Source of the DNA: Candidatus Poribacteria bacterium
GTDB taxonomy: Bacteria; Poribacteria; WGA-4E; GCA-2687025
Assembly: GCA_028818695.1 (NCBI GenBank)
Contig: JAPPNK010000020.1
Span: 64,632-128,631, forward strand
Length of the DNA stretch: 64,000 nt
Direction of reading: 5' to 3'
Below the pieces are notes generated by a model that saw only the letters and a program-made list of their open reading frames with translations, searched no databases and was not told where the DNA came from. The first letter of the stretch is position 1, and each line of letters begins with the position of its first letter. A program made the translations under genes and the position numbers. Positions 4,287-12,433 of this stretch are shown here, one piece after another.

Positions 4287-5240
4287 GTGAAGATACTGGT
4301 CTATCTGCGCGAGCTGAACGAATCGCACCAAAAACGCATACAGGCAGCCGCCCAAGAGCATGGGCGTTCGGTTGTCTTTGCAGAAACAAAAGAGGAGTTG
4401 ATGAAGCATGGCGCGGACGCGGAGATCCTTTTCGCGTACAGCGCCGAGGAGGTGTTTGCCGCCGTCCCGAATGTGAAATGGGTGCAGACGTCGGGCGCGG
4501 GAATTGAGAAGCAGCTGTTCCCGGCGATGATGAAAAGCGGGGCGGCGTTCACAAACGCGGCGGGCGTTTACGCGCCTCAGGCGGCGGAGCATGCGTTTGC
4601 GCTCCTGCTGGCGTTGACGCGCGGGCTGCGGGTTTCCATACGCCGTCAAGAGCGGCGCGAATGGTTTTCGACGCGCAGCTCCGTTCTGGAGATCGGAGGA
4701 TGGACGCTCGGCGTGATCGGGATGGGCGGGTTCGGTCGGGAGATGGCGAAGCGGGCGAAAGGGTTTGAGATGCGCGTCATCGCCGTCGATCCGTACTGCG
4801 CCGAAAAGCCCGCAAATGTGGACGAGCTGCTGCCGTTGGATCGGCTGCCTGACTTGCTGCGTCGGTCGGACGCCGCGATGCTGGCGTGTCCGCTCACAAA
4901 GGAGACGGAGCGGATCGTGGACGCGGACGCCCTGTCCCATATGAAGCGGACGGCGTATCTCATCAATGTGGCGCGGGGGCGTCTTGTGGACGAGGCGGCT
5001 CTGTGCGCGGCGCTGCGGTCTGGACAGATCGCGGGCGCGGGTCTGGATGTCATGGAGACGGAGCCGCTGCCGCCTGAAAGTCCGCTTTGGGAGATGGAGA
5101 ATGTTGTCCTCACATCGCATTCGGCAGGGTATTCACAGCGCCGAGCCGACCGCATGGTCAAGCTGTTTTGCGACAACCTGAGACGCTACACCCGCGGGGA
5201 ACCGCTGCAGAATGTTGTTCGGAAGGAGTTGGGCTTTTAG
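4287..5240 (+). CDS. D-isomer-specific 2-hydroxyacid dehydrogenase family protein
   Basis: 317 aa; NAD-binding GVIGMGGFGREMA, catalytic-domain motifs (INVARGRLVDEAAL, HSAGYS). Confidence 0.85.
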   Translation: MKILVYLRELNESHQKRIQAAAQEHGRSVVFAETKEELMKHGADAEILFAYSAEEVFAAVPNVKWVQTSGAGIEKQLFPAMMKSGAAFTNAAGVYAPQAAEHAFALLLALTRGLRVSIRRQERREWFSTRSSVLEIGGWTLGVIGMGGFGREMAKRAKGFEMRVIAVDPYCAEKPANVDELLPLDRLPDLLRRSDAAMLACPLTKETERIVDADALSHMKRTAYLINVARGRLVDEAALCAALRSGQIAGAGLDVMETEPLPPESPLWEMENVVLTSHSAGYSQRRADRMVKLFCDNLRRYTRGEPLQNVVRKELGF

Positions 5241-5247
5241 GCTACGC

Positions 5248-6753
5248 TCATCGAAGCATGAGAAAGGTCGACAACGGCAAACTGACGATGCGCGGATCAT
5301 CGACCGTTTCGGCATCAACTTGCGTGATGAGTATTCCGAAGGGAGCGTTATTCGCCGATTTTTCCAAAAATGAACGCAGCCCCAACGTGTCGCGGTGCGA
5401 ATCGATGCGCTTGCGGTATTTCACTTCTACAGGGATGCGATAATTGCCGACCGTCAAAACAAAATCGACTTCCTGGTCCATGCCTCTTTGCGGAAAATGA
5501 GCGACATCAAGACCGTGAATGGTTGAAGCCGCCGCGCCAAAGACGCTTTCCGCGATACGCCCCGCCATGTCTGATATTTCCGGCTGCTGCGCTAAAATGT
5601 CCGGCGCAAACGGAATCTGCTCCTGGAGCCAACAGGCGCGGAGACTATGGTCAGCCAAGCATATTTTGGGTCCTCCGCGCCTCTTTCTTAGACGGATCTC
5701 TAATGGAGGAATCAACCTCAACAGCAGCGTGTCTCCAAGCAGCTTCAAGTAGCTGACAACGCGCTGATAGTTAACGCCCGCTCCAAGCGTCAAATTCACT
5801 TCTTCCGTTAAAGTAGATGCGTTGGGAGCTTGACCTGCATAGCGGCATGCCAAGCGCAAAACCTCTTCCAATAATTCTGAGTCCCGTTGCTCCCCTCGTC
5901 CGCTCGCCTGCAGATCATGCTGAATGACTCTCTGGATGACCGTCTCATTCAGATGCCCCGTCAAATCTGCCATTGGAACATCTTTTTCTTTATGGGCTAT
6001 TGGGTAGCCGCCCCTCTCTGAAAACAACCGAAACGCTTCATTTCGAAATTCTTGAAACGCAACGCCCTGATTGCGCAGCGATATCCAATATTCTTTATCG
6101 CGTAGATTGGATATGCCGTTCGCCTCGAGAAACGGCGCCGGCGATGAAAGACCGCGCAGCGCGCCGATCTCTGTCAGCGAGAGAACGCCCGCTTCAATCG
6201 TGGTGATGCGCCCCGCGAGGCTGTCGCGCCCCGCTTCAATGCGTAAAGCCGAACTGCCCGTAACGACCGCTTTTACGGAGGCATGGTCCACGAGAGACTT
6301 CAACTGGGCGGCCCAGTCCCTTAAGTTCTGGATCTCGTCAAAAAAGAGATACGCAGGCTCGCCGTCATGCGCCAGCGCATTGAACCGTTTGGGCGCGACA
6401 TGCCGCTCAAACCAGTCTGTGACGCGTAAGATCGGCTCTCGAAGTTTTTTCAACGAATCCAGCTCGTCAAATTGAATGCGCAGGATGCGGAGCGGATGGA
6501 CGCCCTCGTCCAGCAGATCTTGAATCAGTTGGAGCTGCGCTGTCGTCTTGCCAATTTGACGCGGTCCTCGAACCACGACTGCCGGAGCCAAGCCAAGGTC
6601 TAAGCTGCGGCGAATCTGCGGAACCAGATGCCGACGAATAGACGGCAGCAGCGGCATCGCTTCACCCTCCCACCACGGGTTGAAACTGCGCAGATCAGCC
6701 GACAGATCCTGGGGAAGATTTATATCAGCGAAGAACTCTAATTGATCAGCCAT
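5248..6753 (-). CDS. AAA+ ATPase (COG1373 / DUF4143-type ATP-binding protein)
   Basis: 501 aa; Walker A GPRQIGKTT, Walker B-like LFFDEIQ, C-terminal region typical of DUF4143 proteins. Confidence 0.75.
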   Translation of the reverse strand: MADQLEFFADINLPQDLSADLRSFNPWWEGEAMPLLPSIRRHLVPQIRRSLDLGLAPAVVVRGPRQIGKTTAQLQLIQDLLDEGVHPLRILRIQFDELDSLKKLREPILRVTDWFERHVAPKRFNALAHDGEPAYLFFDEIQNLRDWAAQLKSLVDHASVKAVVTGSSALRIEAGRDSLAGRITTIEAGVLSLTEIGALRGLSSPAPFLEANGISNLRDKEYWISLRNQGVAFQEFRNEAFRLFSERGGYPIAHKEKDVPMADLTGHLNETVIQRVIQHDLQASGRGEQRDSELLEEVLRLACRYAGQAPNASTLTEEVNLTLGAGVNYQRVVSYLKLLGDTLLLRLIPPLEIRLRKRRGGPKICLADHSLRACWLQEQIPFAPDILAQQPEISDMAGRIAESVFGAAASTIHGLDVAHFPQRGMDQEVDFVLTVGNYRIPVEVKYRKRIDSHRDTLGLRSFLEKSANNAPFGILITQVDAETVDDPRIVSLPLSTFLMLR

Positions 6754-6950
6754 GAAGCCCTTTCATTTGATAATTACAGCGCCGCCACCCGCAATGATAA
6801 TGGATGGGAGCCTGAAAGCGCAAGCCGCGGACAACTTCCCCGCGAATTCAATGGGCGGGTCGGACAGCGGCAGCGGGTTTGGGAAAAGAGCCTTTTAGCC
6901 TTTTTGTTGGCGGATGTATTGACTGGCTCTGCTTGAAGTTGCGCGGCTAT

Positions 6951-8329
6951 TCATACCTCGCTCCAGTCAATATCTGCAGCTTTAGCCCCGACGATTTTGA
7001 GACCACCCTTTTTTTCATGGCAGACCCATTTCCCCTGAAATGTATTTTCCGTAGAACTCTCTAGTTCAAATGAGAAAATCTTTTTCATGCTATCCAGAAA
7101 TTTTTTGGCAGACGGATCTGCTGTACATAGGTTTTTTGCGACCGGATCTACTATCATAAATTCCTTGTCCTTATAGTAACAACGGCTAATAAGATCATTT
7201 AAATGCCCATCAGCATAGTTAAAGGAATATCCTGTTATAATTACTCGAGAGGCATCTTCCAAGGTATTTTTTGAGTCATGCCATATATCAATGAATTCGC
7301 TGGAGATTAATGGCTTTACTTTCAGAGGAGCTATAATATATGGTAGGATAAAAGAGGGTTCAATTCCTTTTTCAAAGTTAGTGTTATCGACAACAGTATC
7401 TTGGATGAACCCAATGATAGTTTTTTCTGTATCAATAGTACATTTTTGTTGATTATCCATTTTTATGAAGTTATTCAAATTGCCATGAAAGTAGTGCGTT
7501 TTACCGTTTCCTGGACGCTTTTCAGCGAATGATGTATAATTAAGTGTTATCATATCCCAGTCATCAGGCAGCTTAGAATAAAATGGAATAGGGTTTTTAT
7601 TATATTTATACAATACTTTCTCCTCTTGATATTTTAGAAAAGCCCAGAGGGTCCACGATTGGTATATGTACTTTTTTATATTAGATATATCATTATTGTA
7701 TAGTCCTGAAAAGCTATCAGTAAGCAGGCTCTCAATATCAGTTAGGTAACTCTGAAGGTATTTCAGTACAGGATGTTTTGGTTTCGACTTAAGTAAGAGT
7801 TCACGTATAATAACTTTATAATAGTCAGTGAAGGAGGCATTATGAACATCAATCATACGTTCATCCTCGTTATCAGATTCTCCATGTCCAAAAACCTTAT
7901 AAATTAGCTTTTCAATTTCTGGATCTGCCTTTGTACCATCATGAAGATTTTGAACTTTACTGATGATTTTACTAGCTAAAAGACCCTCATCTCTATGTTC
8001 ATCATCTAGCCCGACATCGTTAATTTGAGTATCGATGTTTGTTACAATCTCATCTATTTGAGTTCTGTTATCCCGATGTAGTAACTTTCCCACGTCAGAT
8101 TCTATTATTTTTTCATATTTAAATATATTATTAAAATAGGGTAGCACGCTCTTACTCCGAAAAGTCTTATCGATGGTTCTCCCCTCGTGCGTTTTTTTAG
8201 AAAATTGTCGATACTCGGAATGAGCTCTACCGCTAAGGGTATATCAATCCCATCGCTATTGTCTACGCCTGCGCCGCAAATAACGACTGTTTTCATTTGC
8301 GTTCTTCTCGCTTTCTCGTCTCGCTTCAA
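6951..8329 (-). CDS. SIR2-like domain protein, AT-rich, interrupted by a frameshift (two overlapping ORFs 8105..8329 and 6951..8147); possible pseudogene or phase-variable gene
   Basis: Two minus-strand ORFs in different frames overlap around a T7 (plus strand) homopolymer at about 8191-8199. N-terminal piece has VVICGAGVDNSDGIDIP (GAG motif); C-terminal piece has ITLNYTSFAEK (TxNYD-like), HYFHGNL (HG) and ITGYSFNYADGHL (GYSxxD), in the order expected for prokaryotic SIR2_2 domains. A sampled 60-nt line is 35% GC. Confidence 0.5.
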
Positions 8330-8396
8330 ACATGGCTCAATGCCGTTTCTTTTCTTATGCTCAAAACGTTACCGCAAGCTCGCGATCCGTGTCAAC

Positions 8397-9845
8397 TTAA
8401 AAAAGCGTTTGTTTCATGAGGCGGCCTGTGTAAGGATCCGCCATCGGCGGCAAGGGGCATGGTCGATCATTGAAAAACTCCTCGATTGACCAGAGGCTTA
8501 GGCGCGGATACGCTTGTCCGCGGACGAGAATGTCGCCCAATGCGGCTGCGTTTGCCCTTGCGCTCGGGGAGGTGACGGTTTCTAGCGTAATGAAGCGGCC
8601 GATAGCCGCCTTATCGCGTTCAACAACGCCTATAAAATCGCGCAGGCTGCTGATATTAAACCGCCCGCCTTTGACCTGCGCCAACGCCAGTTTCGATTCC
8701 CAATTGTCAGGTTGGTCGTATAACGTGGCGCGTCCGTCCACGCCTCCGTCGGCGACCTGCTTTGTATTCGGGATGAATCCTGACAATCGGTTAACCGCCC
8801 ATGCTTCAAATTCAAAAGGCGTTTCCTTTGCCATTTTTTGCGCCGACACAAAATCCGCCGGGATCCCATGAACCGGGATCGTCAAGTCCTGCATACGCCG
8901 CTCGCGTATCATGTCGATGGCAAAGGAGCTGATGTCGACGCCCGCCCATTTTCTTTTGAGGCGGTCAGCCGCCTCCATTGCAGTGCCGCAACCGCAGAAC
9001 GGATCTAAAACGATGTCGCCTTCATTGGACGACGCCTTGATGATTCGCTCTAACAAAGACAGCGGCTTCTGCGTCGGATAGCCCGTTTTTTCTTTTGCCA
9101 TTGGGTTGACGGGGAAAATGTCTGTCCAAATATCCGATACGGGCTTACCTTTGGACGAATCTAGGTACTGTTTTCGGTTCCCAACTTGTAGCCGGTACCT
9201 GCGTCCGTCTTCATCCGTATGTTTGAAACGTCTTGCGATATACTCTTCCGTGTACGGTATGTACTGACGGTTATGCGTAAATTTTTTACTGGCGGCGTAA
9301 TTGAAAATTATATCGTGCCCGGGGACGAATTTTTGCCCGCCCGCCTTTCCTCCCGACGCTGTGCTTCTTTGCCAGACAATTTCATTTCTATAATTCGCTT
9401 TTCCGAATACTGCGTCCATGAGCAATTTTAAGCAGTGGCTCGCAGTTGGGTCGCAGTGGAGGTAAATGGAGCCTGTCGGTTTCAGAATGCGCTGCATTTC
9501 TTCAAGGCGTTCCGCCATATAGGTCAGGTATGCCAGCATGCCGCTCTCACCCAGCGCATGCCACAACCCGACAATCGCCTTATGCGCAGGACGTCCAACC
9601 GCATCTCGGAACCCGTTGTATCGAACGGCTGCAGCCTTATCCCAGTACCAGGTGTCTTTGAACGCCTGGTATTGCGCCTTGCCCGCGCCCTTTGTCCCGA
9701 AGAGAATGCTGTAATTCGCGTTGGAATTGAACGGCGGATCCAGGTAAATCAGGTCGACGCAGTCCGCGTCCCATTTCCGCATCCAGTCGAGACAATCGCC
9801 GTAGTAGAGGCTGTTGGGTTGAAGCTGATTCCCGCCGTAAGACAT
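8397..9845 (-). CDS. Beta-class N6-adenine/N4-cytosine DNA methyltransferase (PF01555-like) fused to a C-terminal Mrr-like PD-(D/E)xK domain
   Basis: 482 aa; motif IV LIYLDPPFNS precedes motif I VLDPFCGCGTA (beta-class order); C-terminal 150 aa has Mrr_cat-like FEAWAV...DGGVDG...AQVK...GRFITL pattern. Confidence 0.8.
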   Translation of the reverse strand: MSYGGNQLQPNSLYYGDCLDWMRKWDADCVDLIYLDPPFNSNANYSILFGTKGAGKAQYQAFKDTWYWDKAAAVRYNGFRDAVGRPAHKAIVGLWHALGESGMLAYLTYMAERLEEMQRILKPTGSIYLHCDPTASHCLKLLMDAVFGKANYRNEIVWQRSTASGGKAGGQKFVPGHDIIFNYAASKKFTHNRQYIPYTEEYIARRFKHTDEDGRRYRLQVGNRKQYLDSSKGKPVSDIWTDIFPVNPMAKEKTGYPTQKPLSLLERIIKASSNEGDIVLDPFCGCGTAMEAADRLKRKWAGVDISSFAIDMIRERRMQDLTIPVHGIPADFVSAQKMAKETPFEFEAWAVNRLSGFIPNTKQVADGGVDGRATLYDQPDNWESKLALAQVKGGRFNISSLRDFIGVVERDKAAIGRFITLETVTSPSARANAAALGDILVRGQAYPRLSLWSIEEFFNDRPCPLPPMADPYTGRLMKQTLF

Positions 9846-10036
9846 GCCCGAATCCTTTTCTAAGTCGCGCGTTCATCGTACCACAGAGCCGCCAAAGACG
9901 GCAACTATTTTGACTGACCCCGCGCCTTAAGTTAGGACATGTCGGCGTACGAGCAATCTCCAAAGGTCAGAGGTTGCAGATCAGCGCGGCGCGCGCTAGA
10001 ATAAGCCCGTCTGGATGCGGCGCGGGCGTCTCTATC

Positions 10037-12433
10037 ATGGATTTTCCGAAGGGGCGGTCTTTTAGTTTGAGAATGTTGTTGCCGTTTAGGGTTGGCGTCG
10101 CCCTCTCCTTGCTCTGTTTCTTTGCGCCGGCGTTGGGTCTGCGCGCCGAAGAGGATCTAGAGGATCTCTACGTTGCGCGGTGCGTCTTCTATTCGGACGG
10201 GCGCGTCGTCCGTTTTGACCGCATGCCGATTGTGGCGCGTCTTGGAAAAACGCCTCCGAGCGTGGACGCGGAGCGGTTTGAAAAGGCGTTTCATGAAGCG
10301 GCTAAGATCTGGGAAGAAGCGTCGGGCGGCGTCGTCCGCTTTCGATTTGCGGACGATTCGGAGGAGCATGTGGACCTGCCTGTCGCTTGGATCACGCATC
10401 TTCCTGGGCGCGGGCGGGAGCGTCATCTTGGCAGGGCGGTTCTCTCGCGTTTGACGGGAAGCCCGGACAGCTTCCATGTCAAAATGGAGATTGGCGTCTA
10501 TGACCGGGAGTCGGGGCGCGAGCTGACAGACCAGGAGGCGTTGACCGTCTGCCTGCATGAGTTAGGGCATGCGATCGGGCTTTGGGGTCACAGCGACCGT
10601 GAAGAAGATATTATGTCGCCCGCTTCTGCCGCGCCCGCCCCGACTCAGCGCGACGCGGACACCCTGCGCGCCATTTATGAAATGCCGGTGAACGCGCCGC
10701 TGCATGAGCCGGCGATGCGGGAGCTGCGCGGCGAGATCGAAGAGCGGCCGGACGATCCCGCCCCGCGCTATCTTCTTGGGTCTGTCGCGCTGGACGCGGA
10801 GCGGTACGACGAGGCGGTTGAGGCGCTTCAAGCGGCGCTGAAGATAGACCGATTTCACATGGCAGCGGGCGAAAAACTTGTCATGGCGTATCTCGAGGCG
10901 GAGCGGTATGACGAAGCGGCGCGTCAGCTTTACGACGGGCCGCTTTTCAGCGCGGAGCTGTATAACAACGCCGGCATTGTGTTCGCTGAGAAAGAAGCCT
11001 CCGAAGACGCTCTCAAGGCGTTTCAACAAGCTCTCGATCTGAAACCGACGATGGAAGCGGCGCGGCGAAATCTTGCGCGGGTTTATGCGCGTATCGGGGT
11101 GGACAAGATCAAAGCGGAGGAAACGAAAGCGGCGTACGACGCCTTTCGGCAGGCTTGGGAGCTGGACAAGCGCGCCGCCTATGGGCTTCAGCTGGGTTCA
11201 ACGCTGGGCTTGATGAAACGGCATCTGGAAGCCGCGCGCGTCTATAAGCAGGTTTTGGGGGAGTTTCCCGACAATCGGGACGCGCGGATGAACCTAGCCG
11301 CCGCTTATAACAATCTGGGCGTGGGCGCCAGCGAAAAAAAGCAGTGGGAAAGAGCGCTCCGCTACTTTGATCAAGCCTCCGAAGCGGACCCCGATTTTGA
11401 AATGAGCGTTCAGAATCGCCTTGCGGCCCTCTGGCAATGGGCGTCTTCTTTAGAAACGGCGAACCCGGCAAAGGCGGTCAGCTTATACCAAGAATATCTC
11501 TCTGCGGTTCCGAGCGCCTGGGAGGCGCATGCGCAGATCGGAATGATTTACAGCCGGGCGGAGGCGCACGATAAAGCGGCGAAGGCGTATGAAGAGGCGC
11601 TGCGCCTGAACCCCGACCGGGAGACGGTTCGGCGCAACCTTGCCATCGTCTATTACAAACGCGCAAATCAGCTGTTGGAATCGGGGCTGAGCGAAGAGGC
11701 GGCGGCGTATTTTTTACAATCGATCCAAACGGATGCGAGCCTCGCCGGTCCGTATCAGGGGCTGGCGGCGGCGTATGTGAGGTCGGACAAATGGACGGAG
11801 GCGGCAAACGCCCTAGAAGAAGCGCTGCGCCGTAAACCGGACGACGAATGGGCGCGCAAATGGCTTTCTGCCGCGGCGATTGAGCTCGGAAATGCGGCTG
11901 TTGCGCGGGAAGATTTTGAAGCCGCTGTACGGGAGTTTGAACGCGCGCCCCTTGAAACGCGCGACGCGCGCGTGAACGGCATGCTTGGCTTTCTTTACAC
12001 GAAGTTAGAACGGTATGATCGGGCGGTTGATTCGCTTGGACGCGCGTTGCTGGCAAATCCGAAGAATGAATCGTTTCGGAATAATCTGGAGTTCAACAGA
12101 AGAGCGGTCAAAGACATTTTGAAGCGCGACAAGTCGTTCCGATGGCGCAGCGTATGGATACGTTTGGAGGCGTACCGCCTCGCCTCTTTGATCGGAAGTA
12201 AGATGAAAAAGGGCGATCTGGAGAAGTTTGACCGGTTCCTACAGATAGAGCTGGAGGCGGAGGAGAAAGACGCCGAGGAGGTCGCATTGACTGTCGGAGC
12301 GATACAGGATTGCGCTTTGTTTGCCGCAGAGAAGGGGCGCGCGTCTTATCCGGGGCTGGCGCGCGGGATTGCCGTTAAAGCGCTGCGGTATGATCGCCGG
12401 CATGAGGGGTTGGCGCAGTTTTTGGGGGAATAG
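10037..12433 (+). CDS. Secreted metzincin-like zinc metalloprotease domain fused to tetratricopeptide (TPR) repeats
   Basis: Signal-peptide-like N-terminus; HELGHAIGLWGH (HExxHxxGxxH) with downstream Met; multiple TPR-like repeats in the C-terminal 550 aa. Track ORF starts at TTG 9974; ATG at 10037 preferred. Confidence 0.7.
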   Translation: MDFPKGRSFSLRMLLPFRVGVALSLLCFFAPALGLRAEEDLEDLYVARCVFYSDGRVVRFDRMPIVARLGKTPPSVDAERFEKAFHEAAKIWEEASGGVVRFRFADDSEEHVDLPVAWITHLPGRGRERHLGRAVLSRLTGSPDSFHVKMEIGVYDRESGRELTDQEALTVCLHELGHAIGLWGHSDREEDIMSPASAAPAPTQRDADTLRAIYEMPVNAPLHEPAMRELRGEIEERPDDPAPRYLLGSVALDAERYDEAVEALQAALKIDRFHMAAGEKLVMAYLEAERYDEAARQLYDGPLFSAELYNNAGIVFAEKEASEDALKAFQQALDLKPTMEAARRNLARVYARIGVDKIKAEETKAAYDAFRQAWELDKRAAYGLQLGSTLGLMKRHLEAARVYKQVLGEFPDNRDARMNLAAAYNNLGVGASEKKQWERALRYFDQASEADPDFEMSVQNRLAALWQWASSLETANPAKAVSLYQEYLSAVPSAWEAHAQIGMIYSRAEAHDKAAKAYEEALRLNPDRETVRRNLAIVYYKRANQLLESGLSEEAAAYFLQSIQTDASLAGPYQGLAAAYVRSDKWTEAANALEEALRRKPDDEWARKWLSAAAIELGNAAVAREDFEAAVREFERAPLETRDARVNGMLGFLYTKLERYDRAVDSLGRALLANPKNESFRNNLEFNRRAVKDILKRDKSFRWRSVWIRLEAYRLASLIGSKMKKGDLEKFDRFLQIELEAEEKDAEEVALTVGAIQDCALFAAEKGRASYPGLARGIAVKALRYDRRHEGLAQFLGE

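Follow-up and report, generated by a model that had tools for sequence, protein, structure and literature searches.

An AT-rich gene on a contig of a Candidatus Poribacteria bacterium (JAPPNK010000020.1, assembly GCA_028818695.1) raises the question of whether the SIR2-like motifs scattered over its translation belong to a genuine SIR2 domain, and of what such a protein would do next to a DNA methyltransferase gene. The gene occupies positions 6951-8329 on the minus strand of the 64,000-nucleotide stretch analysed here (the window, from which positions are counted unless another locus is named), and its guanine plus cytosine (GC) content is low, at 34% in 7001-8000 compared with about 59% for the window. 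The reading favoured here, with moderate confidence, is that it is one gene of an uncharacterised SIR2-fold family nearest to AbiH, that intact members act as self-contained abortive-infection effectors consuming nicotinamide adenine dinucleotide (NAD+), and that the gene forms an AT-rich cassette associated with restriction-modification (R-M) genes, the copy in the window having been inactivated.

One gene split at a run of adenines

Two overlapping open reading frames (ORFs) of 74 amino acids (8329..8105) and 398 amino acids (8147..6951) lie in different frames of the minus strand. The longer one is deposited as 'hypothetical protein OXT69_08925, Candidatus Poribacteria bacterium', and protein P0001 is 100% identical over it. 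Three-frame translation, together with an alignment of 59 homologues sharing 24-49% identity with the window protein, placed ..IDNFLKK in the first frame and EGRTIDK, which carries the invariant G39, in the second, so the break must lie in or right beside the run of seven adenines at 8192-8198. A start at the ATG of position 8296 (MKTVV...) matches the start of every homologue, and also that of P0286, an intact allele of 448 amino acids from another metagenome that was retrieved by a 90%-identity cluster look-up. The junction of P0286, NFLKKTHEGRT, is identical to that of the frame-corrected window protein, and the two proteins differ at just three residues, none of them at the junction. Since the P0286 protein matches the reconstruction across the junction, the intact allele must have eight adenines and the window one fewer. 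The region 6951-8329 is one gene for a 448-amino-acid protein, split by a one-base deletion in this run.

The window copy is inactivated by the loss of one adenine from the run of eight, and the cause is read as a real mutation; a local homopolymer sequencing or assembly error is less likely. A crude scan of the window found 74 homopolymer runs of at least six bases, eight of them inside the AT-rich gene, and no other broken gene at these runs. The two large frame junctions inspected proved to be normal adjacent genes, which argues, weakly, against a systematic homopolymer sequencing error. For the source genome, this means that the deposited 398-amino-acid 'hypothetical protein' is a truncated remnant of a frameshifted gene, and the pseudogene or mis-assembled state lowers its importance for the host organism, not for the family. 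Other members of the family are also disrupted. Single in-frame premature stops occur in L030 (codon 281, TGA), L065 (codon 116, TAG), and L087 (codon 366, TAG), in genes that are otherwise well conserved. These three members come from Thiobacillus denitrificans RG, Azomonas macrocytogenes, and one metagenome-assembled genome (MAG), two of the three being cultured isolates, and the stop of the MAG member hits the Glu of the ADEH motif. Inactivation is thus read as recurrent and ordinary, as expected of a costly or toxic effector.

A SIR2-type fold with a helical insertion

The first-pass annotation had quoted four peptides from this gene, with a GAG motif near the N-terminus and three SIR2_2-like motifs much further on, and had suggested either an inserted domain or a coincidental N-terminal match. 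All four peptides are encoded on the minus strand (Table 1), and their core residues are invariant across the 59 homologues; at an overall identity of only 24-49%, such invariance argues that they are not chance matches. The residues conserved without exception around ITGYSFNYADGHL are G356, Y357, S358, F359, D363, H365, and N367, and further invariant features are K328, a PPLKxKP segment, and two tryptophans. At the N-terminus, G8-A9-G10 follows a Rossmann strand beta-1 and continues as GAGVDxxxGIDxP, resembling the sirtuin signature GAGxSxxxGIP, which speaks against a coincidence. In an hhalign comparison of the family with one Pfam-flagged SIR2_2 protein (from L011), only this GAG..GIP segment was aligned, with a probability of 0.6. 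The large gap between the GAG and TxNY motifs was also confirmed, its length being 243 residues (G8 to T251) in place of the approximately 230 first estimated. The alignment contains no cysteine in its invariant or near-invariant columns, so the family lacks the Cys4 zinc module that deacetylase sirtuins possess. Antiphage SIR2 proteins are usually without this module as well.

The predicted structure of a homologue, P0003 (428 residues, 46% identical to the window protein), agreed with a SIR2-like domain carrying an inserted region between the two motifs. The AlphaFold2 model, built with the family alignment, had a predicted local distance difference test score (pLDDT) of 87 and a predicted template modelling score (pTM) of 0.84. 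A Foldseek search with it against the PDB returned sirtuins for all of the top 50 matches, consistent with a Rossmann-type core of sirtuin topology, and the sole viral match was a Marseillevirus Sir2 family protein. The model aligned over 211 of its 428 residues to the 256-residue Sir2-Af1 chain, and over 276 residues to a 408-amino-acid SIR2 of a SIR2-HerA system. Its elements run from a strand at residues 3-7 and the GAG loop through a set of helices to a strand at 240-243 ending in TLNYT, a strand followed by FHG, and a strand at 345-349 followed by GYSF. As this is the sirtuin order, the GAG motif belongs to the fold. Residues 22-225 of the model consist of helices only according to DSSP, which indicates a true insertion, and a helical domain of about 200 residues is predicted to sit where sirtuins have their small domain. 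The modelled architecture thus comprises strand beta-1 with the GAG loop, this insertion, and a catalytic half that contains the invariant Asn of TLNYT, the invariant His of FHG, and a GYSF...D.H.ND loop. Asn253 and His271 are the probable equivalents of the sirtuin catalytic pair, as suggested by their invariance, their position after matching strands, and partial hidden Markov model alignments. The G-Y-S loop in ITGYSFNYADGHL would correspond to the G-T-S loop with which sirtuins bind NAD.

The SIR2/sirtuin fold of the family is therefore clear from the predicted structure and faint at the sequence level. PADLOC generic SIR2 models match residues 318-430 of the protein weakly (E 7e-5 to 7e-3). 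Among the 59 members, the Pfam family matched most often is AbiH (PF14253, gathering cut-off 30.9 bits), with weak matches in 16 members; the best scores are 30.3 bits for P0066 and 27.4 bits for the next relative, covering profile positions of approximately 136-249 of 260, from the NYT through the GYS motif, and two members carry a precomputed PF14253 match. Pfam SIR2_2 (PF13289, gathering cut-off 24.5 bits) matches 12 of the 59 members weakly, the best at E 0.0096 and about 14 bits. The TLNYT stretch of the relatives aligns to SIR2_2 positions 3-24, inside the AbiH match, and the GYS stretch aligns weakly to positions 79-108. The canonical sirtuin profile SIR2 (PF02146) matches neither the window protein nor any of the 59 members. 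A member from Fervidobacterium is named 'SIR2-like domain-containing protein' in UniRef; no paper was found that names any of the family accessions tried, nor an experimental report on one. The family is named by no Pfam, NCBIfam, or PADLOC v2 model.

Judged by its sequence, the family appears nearest to AbiH, within the 'immune' SIR2 group. AbiH, which belongs to the 'SIRim' group and is known from lactococcal abortive infection, is likewise a single-gene module with a SIR2-like fold; the literature calls it sirtuin-like and places it among the antiphage SIR2 proteins (PMC13064643; bioRxiv 10.1101/2024.09.18.613514), and it is predicted to deplete NAD+ (PMC13064643). The NYT motif lies near profile position 140 in AbiH and at residue 245-253 in this family, so the helical insertion is about 100 residues longer here. 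AbiH is moreover reported on integrative conjugative elements (PMC13064643), whereas the present family is tied to R-M operons. The SIR2 protein of the SIR2-HerA system (Nezha / GAO_19; PDB 8w9l, 8yhx_G, 8j4u_A) has a similar size (360-408 amino acids) and also combines a SIR2 core with an enlarged helical region. However, HerA does not adjoin the gene in the window, which is flanked there by genes for a methylase and an AAA_14/DUF4143 protein, nor in about 80 of the 84 family loci, and none of the strong PADLOC models of SIR2-HerA matches the protein, which is hit by generic SIR2 models alone, at E >= 7e-5. A HerA/DUF87 ATPase gene stands directly upstream of the family gene in three loci (L031, 6295-8004; L005, 2646-7964; L056, 4990-7971), and in L031 the 569-amino-acid HerA overlaps the start of the family gene inside a type I R-M operon. 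These loci hint at a SIR2-HerA-like sub-arrangement.

Other characterised SIR2 proteins are more distant. Unlike ThsA of Thoeris, the protein has no SLOG or Macro domain in Pfam scans, and no ThsB/TIR gene adjoins it in the window; unlike DSR1 and DSR2, it is only 448 amino acids long, DSR proteins exceeding 1000 amino acids. The SIR2_2 score of the family, which is at most about 14 bits and thus well under the cut-off, also separates it from ThsA and DSR. The nearest sequence family is AbiH and neither of these two systems, to which the first-pass annotation had suggested an alignment; the proposed fit to SIR2_2 is borne out in the sirtuin fold and fails for membership of that Pfam family, and the suggested Pfam search returned the sub-threshold AbiH and SIR2_2 matches of relatives and none for the window protein. 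Canonical sirtuins (Sir2-Af1, CobB, PfSir2A, SIRT5) differ in having the zinc-binding Cys4 and a small domain where the modelled family protein has the helical insertion, and HMMER detects no sequence similarity to them.

Genomic context, proposed function, and alternatives

The loci of the family showed a frequent association with R-M genes. Crude gene calls were made at 84 loci, with the upstream strand counted in 79 and Pfam neighbour scans covering 71 upstream and 66 downstream neighbours. The upstream neighbour lies on the same strand in 68 of the 79 loci. HsdM/S genes are found at 38 of the 84 loci and HsdR at 26, with N6_N4 methylases at seven and type III Res at four. The commonest layout is hsdM-hsdS-[gene]-(x)-hsdR, and in at least 14 loci the family gene lies between M/S and R. 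The upstream domains include Methylase_S (16 of 71), N6_Mtase (7), ResIII (5), and Eco57I (4), and the downstream ones HSDR_N (7 of 66), SLFN_AlbA_2 (5), and Fic (3). Other neighbours encode TIR, SIR2_2, GmrSD, HerA, Fic, SLFN_AlbA_2, MmeI-like, and Cas3-like proteins, and clustering of the neighbours over the loci revealed no universal partner gene. Embedding was taken as a position on the same strand between or directly after R-M genes, and the window gene lies directly after the methylase gene, whose stop is 100 nucleotides ahead of the ATG at 8296 on the same strand, with no terminator-like site in the minus-strand gap between them. That type I R-M, BREX, and DISARM operons harbour unrelated defence genes has been described as a general habit (bioRxiv 10.1101/2024.01.29.577857); the supplements of that work contain no SIR2 or AbiH entry.

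A comparison with the complete Ca. Poribacteria chromosome OY762492.1 (L004/L023), which blastn showed to be syntenic with the window at L004, indicated how the gene moves. The same methylase gene precedes the SIR2-like gene in both genomes. The flank identity reaches 37 nucleotides into the gene (to 8260) and resumes at 6840, and the proteins encoded by the gene body are 44% identical. The flanks share 88-91% of their nucleotides and the gene body only about 65%, so the latter appears to have been replaced, in cassette form, at a fixed hotspot. Neither direct nor inverted repeats of note border the cassette, and the OY762492.1 locus holds an extra Fic gene. The GC content of the gene was below that of its flanks in eight of the nine loci examined. 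A search of 5.8 billion protein clusters yielded 61 relatives, nearly all of 423-451 amino acids and spanning the whole joined-frame protein, while an exhaustive profile search of 1.84 billion representatives gave 245 clusters at E <= 1e-10, of which 112 reached E <= 1e-30; 103 relatives were found among 185,579 species, each represented by one genome. They occur in Proteobacteria, Bacteroidota, Spirochaetia, Nitrospira, Verrucomicrobia, Thermotogae, and other bacteria, and in the archaea Thermococcus and Archaeoglobaceae. The low GC content, the gene-body exchange in Poribacteria, and the sparse spread over bacteria and archaea point to horizontal acquisition, and the gene moves as an AT-rich cassette whose preferred landing places are the interior and the end of R-M operons. 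A phage or plasmid origin was considered and rejected, as no member occurs in 50,697 phage records and just one plasmid record out of 72,556 carries the family.

Characterised SIR2 proteins with antiphage activity (ThsA, DSR2, SIR2-HerA, and SIR2-pAgo) are NADases that deplete NAD+ on infection. Comparable NADase chemistry is proposed here for the whole family, and so are its trigger, the function of the helical insertion, and a phenotype in defence. Intact members would be sensor-effectors in one protein, in which the helical insertion senses or gates and keeps the enzyme silent as long as no infection cue is present; on such a cue, NAD+ would be hydrolysed by the SIR2 core, and the loss of NAD+ would stop the infected cell by abortive infection. 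SIR2 NADases are a recurring prokaryotic immune effector with vertebrate relatives (FAM118 sirtuins), and SIR2 domains in defence islands are already familiar. To these the family adds a compact single-protein SIR2 distinguished by the large helical insertion in place of the small domain and by an unusually strong R-M-operon habit, and the consistent R-M embedding of such a compact, unmodelled family is a testable lead.

Several observations weigh against this proposal. Neither the window ORFs nor the frame-corrected protein gave anything significant against Pfam, NCBIfam, or PDB sequences. No member reaches the curated cut-off of AbiH or SIR2_2, and the window protein itself is matched by neither (for SIR2_2, at E <= 10). 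HMMER profiles of the family found no solved SIR2 among PDB sequences, the full profile returning coiled-coil noise from the insert and a core-only profile nothing relevant. The structure model is that of P0003 and not of the window protein itself. The catalytic motif, spelled TQNID in sirtuins and TTNYD in SIR2_2, has an Asp that is replaced by an invariant Thr (TLNYT) in this family, so the chemistry could differ. At the level of context, approximately 45% of the loci have no R-M gene nearby, and some look ordinary or housekeeping, such as L001, which lies between archease and spermidine synthesis genes. Finally, the window copy is broken and may have no role in its Ca. Poribacteria host.

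The main rival to a self-contained effector is an effector coupled to R-M, which would follow the logic of PrrC with a SIR2 enzyme: it would be silenced by, or signalled from, the methylase, the R-M complex, or the host methylation status, and would fire when a phage blocks restriction. This is considered unlikely, even though the gene stands directly after same-strand R-M genes, often with gaps of 3-30 nucleotides and often between hsdS and hsdR, the neighbours Methylase_S, N6_Mtase, and HSDR_N recur at the frequencies given above, and the same methylase gene precedes it in the window and in L004. PrrC provides a precedent, as it is almost exclusively embedded in type I R-M and is activated by the R-M inhibitor Stp (bioRxiv 10.1101/2024.01.29.577857), and it has the same genomic habit, its gene sharing the strand of hsdM/hsdS and hsdR and standing between them or immediately behind. 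However, PrrC is an anticodon nuclease of unrelated fold and chemistry, and the present family also occurs with other R-M types or with none. The partners are heterogeneous (type I, type III-like, MmeI-like, a lone N6/N4 methylase, GmrSD), and this mixture, together with the loci free of R-M genes, makes a specific physical partnership hard to sustain; in addition, R-M operons commonly contain defence genes unrelated to them. If the R-M linkage is functional, it would show how restriction and abortive infection couple, and a PrrC-like arrangement, if true, would amount to a second, metabolic layer on R-M immunity across bacteria and archaea; otherwise the family is still a testable defence candidate, with N253 and H271 for catalytic-dead controls. 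A similarly doubtful alternative is that the SIR2 core is a transferase or deacylase that ADP-ribosylates or deacylates one particular target, protein or nucleic acid, for defence or regulation. In its favour, a modified pocket is suggested by the replacement of the motif Asp with an invariant Thr and by the invariant D363, H365, N367, and K328, but the zinc-binding cysteine set is missing, the context resembles a defence island with no conserved metabolic or regulatory partner, and the characterised antiphage SIR2 proteins act as NADases.

Two further explanations carry far less weight. It is very improbable that the frameshift is functional, be it through phase variation by slippage of the adenine run or through synthesis of the full-length protein by -1 ribosomal frameshifting or transcriptional slippage at A_AAA_AAA. 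The position of the break coincides with a slippery heptamer, A AAA AAA, that follows the first 33 codons, a -1 ribosomal slip or the insertion of one adenine in the transcript would each yield the P0286 protein exactly, and the crude homopolymer scan revealed no second broken gene in the window. However, the sequence 3' of the run shows no stimulatory RNA structure (z +0.77, with 153 of 200 shuffles folding at least as well), homologues have no frameshift at this position, and seven or eight adenines are short for efficient slippage. The other disrupted members of the family, which carry plain nonsense mutations, point to ordinary decay. Hardly credible is the view that the motif matches are coincidental and that the protein is not SIR2-like, for example being a restriction nuclease partnering the methylase. 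The absence of Pfam, NCBIfam, and PDB-sequence matches would suit it, as would a position directly after a methylase, where a restriction endonuclease gene would be expected; nevertheless, the sirtuin order of the P0003 model already refutes coincidence, so far as a predicted structure can. The self-contained NAD+-consuming effector is preferred for intact members.

Neighbouring genes and additional observations

The positions of the features are collected in Table 1.

Table 1. Position of the split gene, its motifs, and its surroundings in the window
Feature	Position	Strand	Remarks
Upstream ORF fragment	8105..8329	-	Family sequence only in 8199-8296 (residues 1-~33); remainder is out-of-frame read-through to the stop
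Downstream ORF, 398 amino acids	6951..8147	-	Most of the predicted helical insert and the whole catalytic half; family frame open already from 8198
Probable true start (ATG at 8296), strand beta-1 and glycine loop MKTVVICGAGV (G8-A9-G10)	8264..8296	-	
VVICGAGV	8287-8264	-	Residues 4-11; in the first ORF
All-helical insertion between GAG loop and strand beta-2 (predicted)	7578..8233 (approximate, mapped via alignment)	-	Residues ~22-240; DSSP of P0003 model
A7 run, frame-break site	8192..8198	-	P0286 protein implies A8, i.e., one base lost
ITLNYTSFAEK	7553-7521	-	Residues 249-259; second ORF
ITLNYTS motif with putative catalytic Asn253 (AAT 7541-7539)	7533..7553	-	T251, N253, Y254, T255 invariant
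HYFHGNL	7496-7476	-	Residues 268-274; second ORF
F270-H271-G272 with putative catalytic His (CAT 7487-7485)	7482..7490	-	Invariant in the family
ITGYSFNYADGHL	7238-7200	-	Residues 354-366; second ORF; strand, then G-Y-S loop
Variable cassette compared with OY762492.1	6841..8259	.	Flanks 88-91% DNA identity; cassette ~65% where aligned (blastn; L004 8044-10614)
N6/N4 DNA methyltransferase with C-terminal Mrr_cat-like domain, upstream neighbour	8397..9845	-	Pfam N6_N4_Mtase E 2e-46, Mrr_cat E 1.7e-5; PADLOC MTase_II E 3e-61
AAA_14 + DUF4143 ATPase (PADLOC defence candidate PDC-S01), downstream neighbour	5248..6753	-	

A type II R-M pair of methylase and endonuclease was considered for the window and rejected, as the partner of the methylase has a predicted SIR2 fold and not a nuclease fold, and the methylase itself carries the Mrr_cat-like domain. 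The middle of the methylase gene (9084-9371) gives no DNA alignment to its 77%-identical orthologue, both ends being 86-88% identical; it may represent a swapped target-recognition segment, implying a different methylation specificity in the two strains. The AAA_14 + DUF4143 ATPase gene that follows the SIR2-like gene also adjoins it in the unrelated Spirochaetia locus L009 (9477-10748), and in the related Poribacteria locus L004 it lies one gene away, after Fic (10705-12210). This pairing could reflect chance within defence islands or a loose association.

Variation was also observed within the family. A subclade from gut Bacteroidales (L071, L072, L078, L080, L081, L085, L090, and one further locus) encodes a longer protein of approximately 470-480 amino acids, and just upstream of it lies a gene for a conserved protein of about 150 amino acids without a Pfam match, directly adjacent in seven of the eight and sharing the strand of the family gene wherever this was inspected. 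This arrangement may be a two-gene variant. In P0088 (1196 amino acids), a hybrid histidine kinase with the order CHASE2-HisKA-HATPase-REC-Hpt is apparently fused to the catalytic half of the family (residues 944-1195), which could be a genuine fusion or an artefact of calling genes across a truncated copy.

No RNA element was recognised by Rfam in window positions 5000-10500. Two more genes of the window complete the picture of the surroundings. An EcoRV-family restriction endonuclease is encoded at 373-1206 on the minus strand (Pfam E 3e-115), and in the syntenic genome a D12-class methylase gene starts right after its orthologue; the EcoRV-family gene would be a second R-M system approximately 6 kb from the SIR2-like gene. 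Divergent from the methylase gene, positions 9974-12433 of the plus strand encode an 819-amino-acid protein in which a long series of tetratricopeptide (TPR) repeats comes after a Peptidase_M10 domain of the matrixin type.

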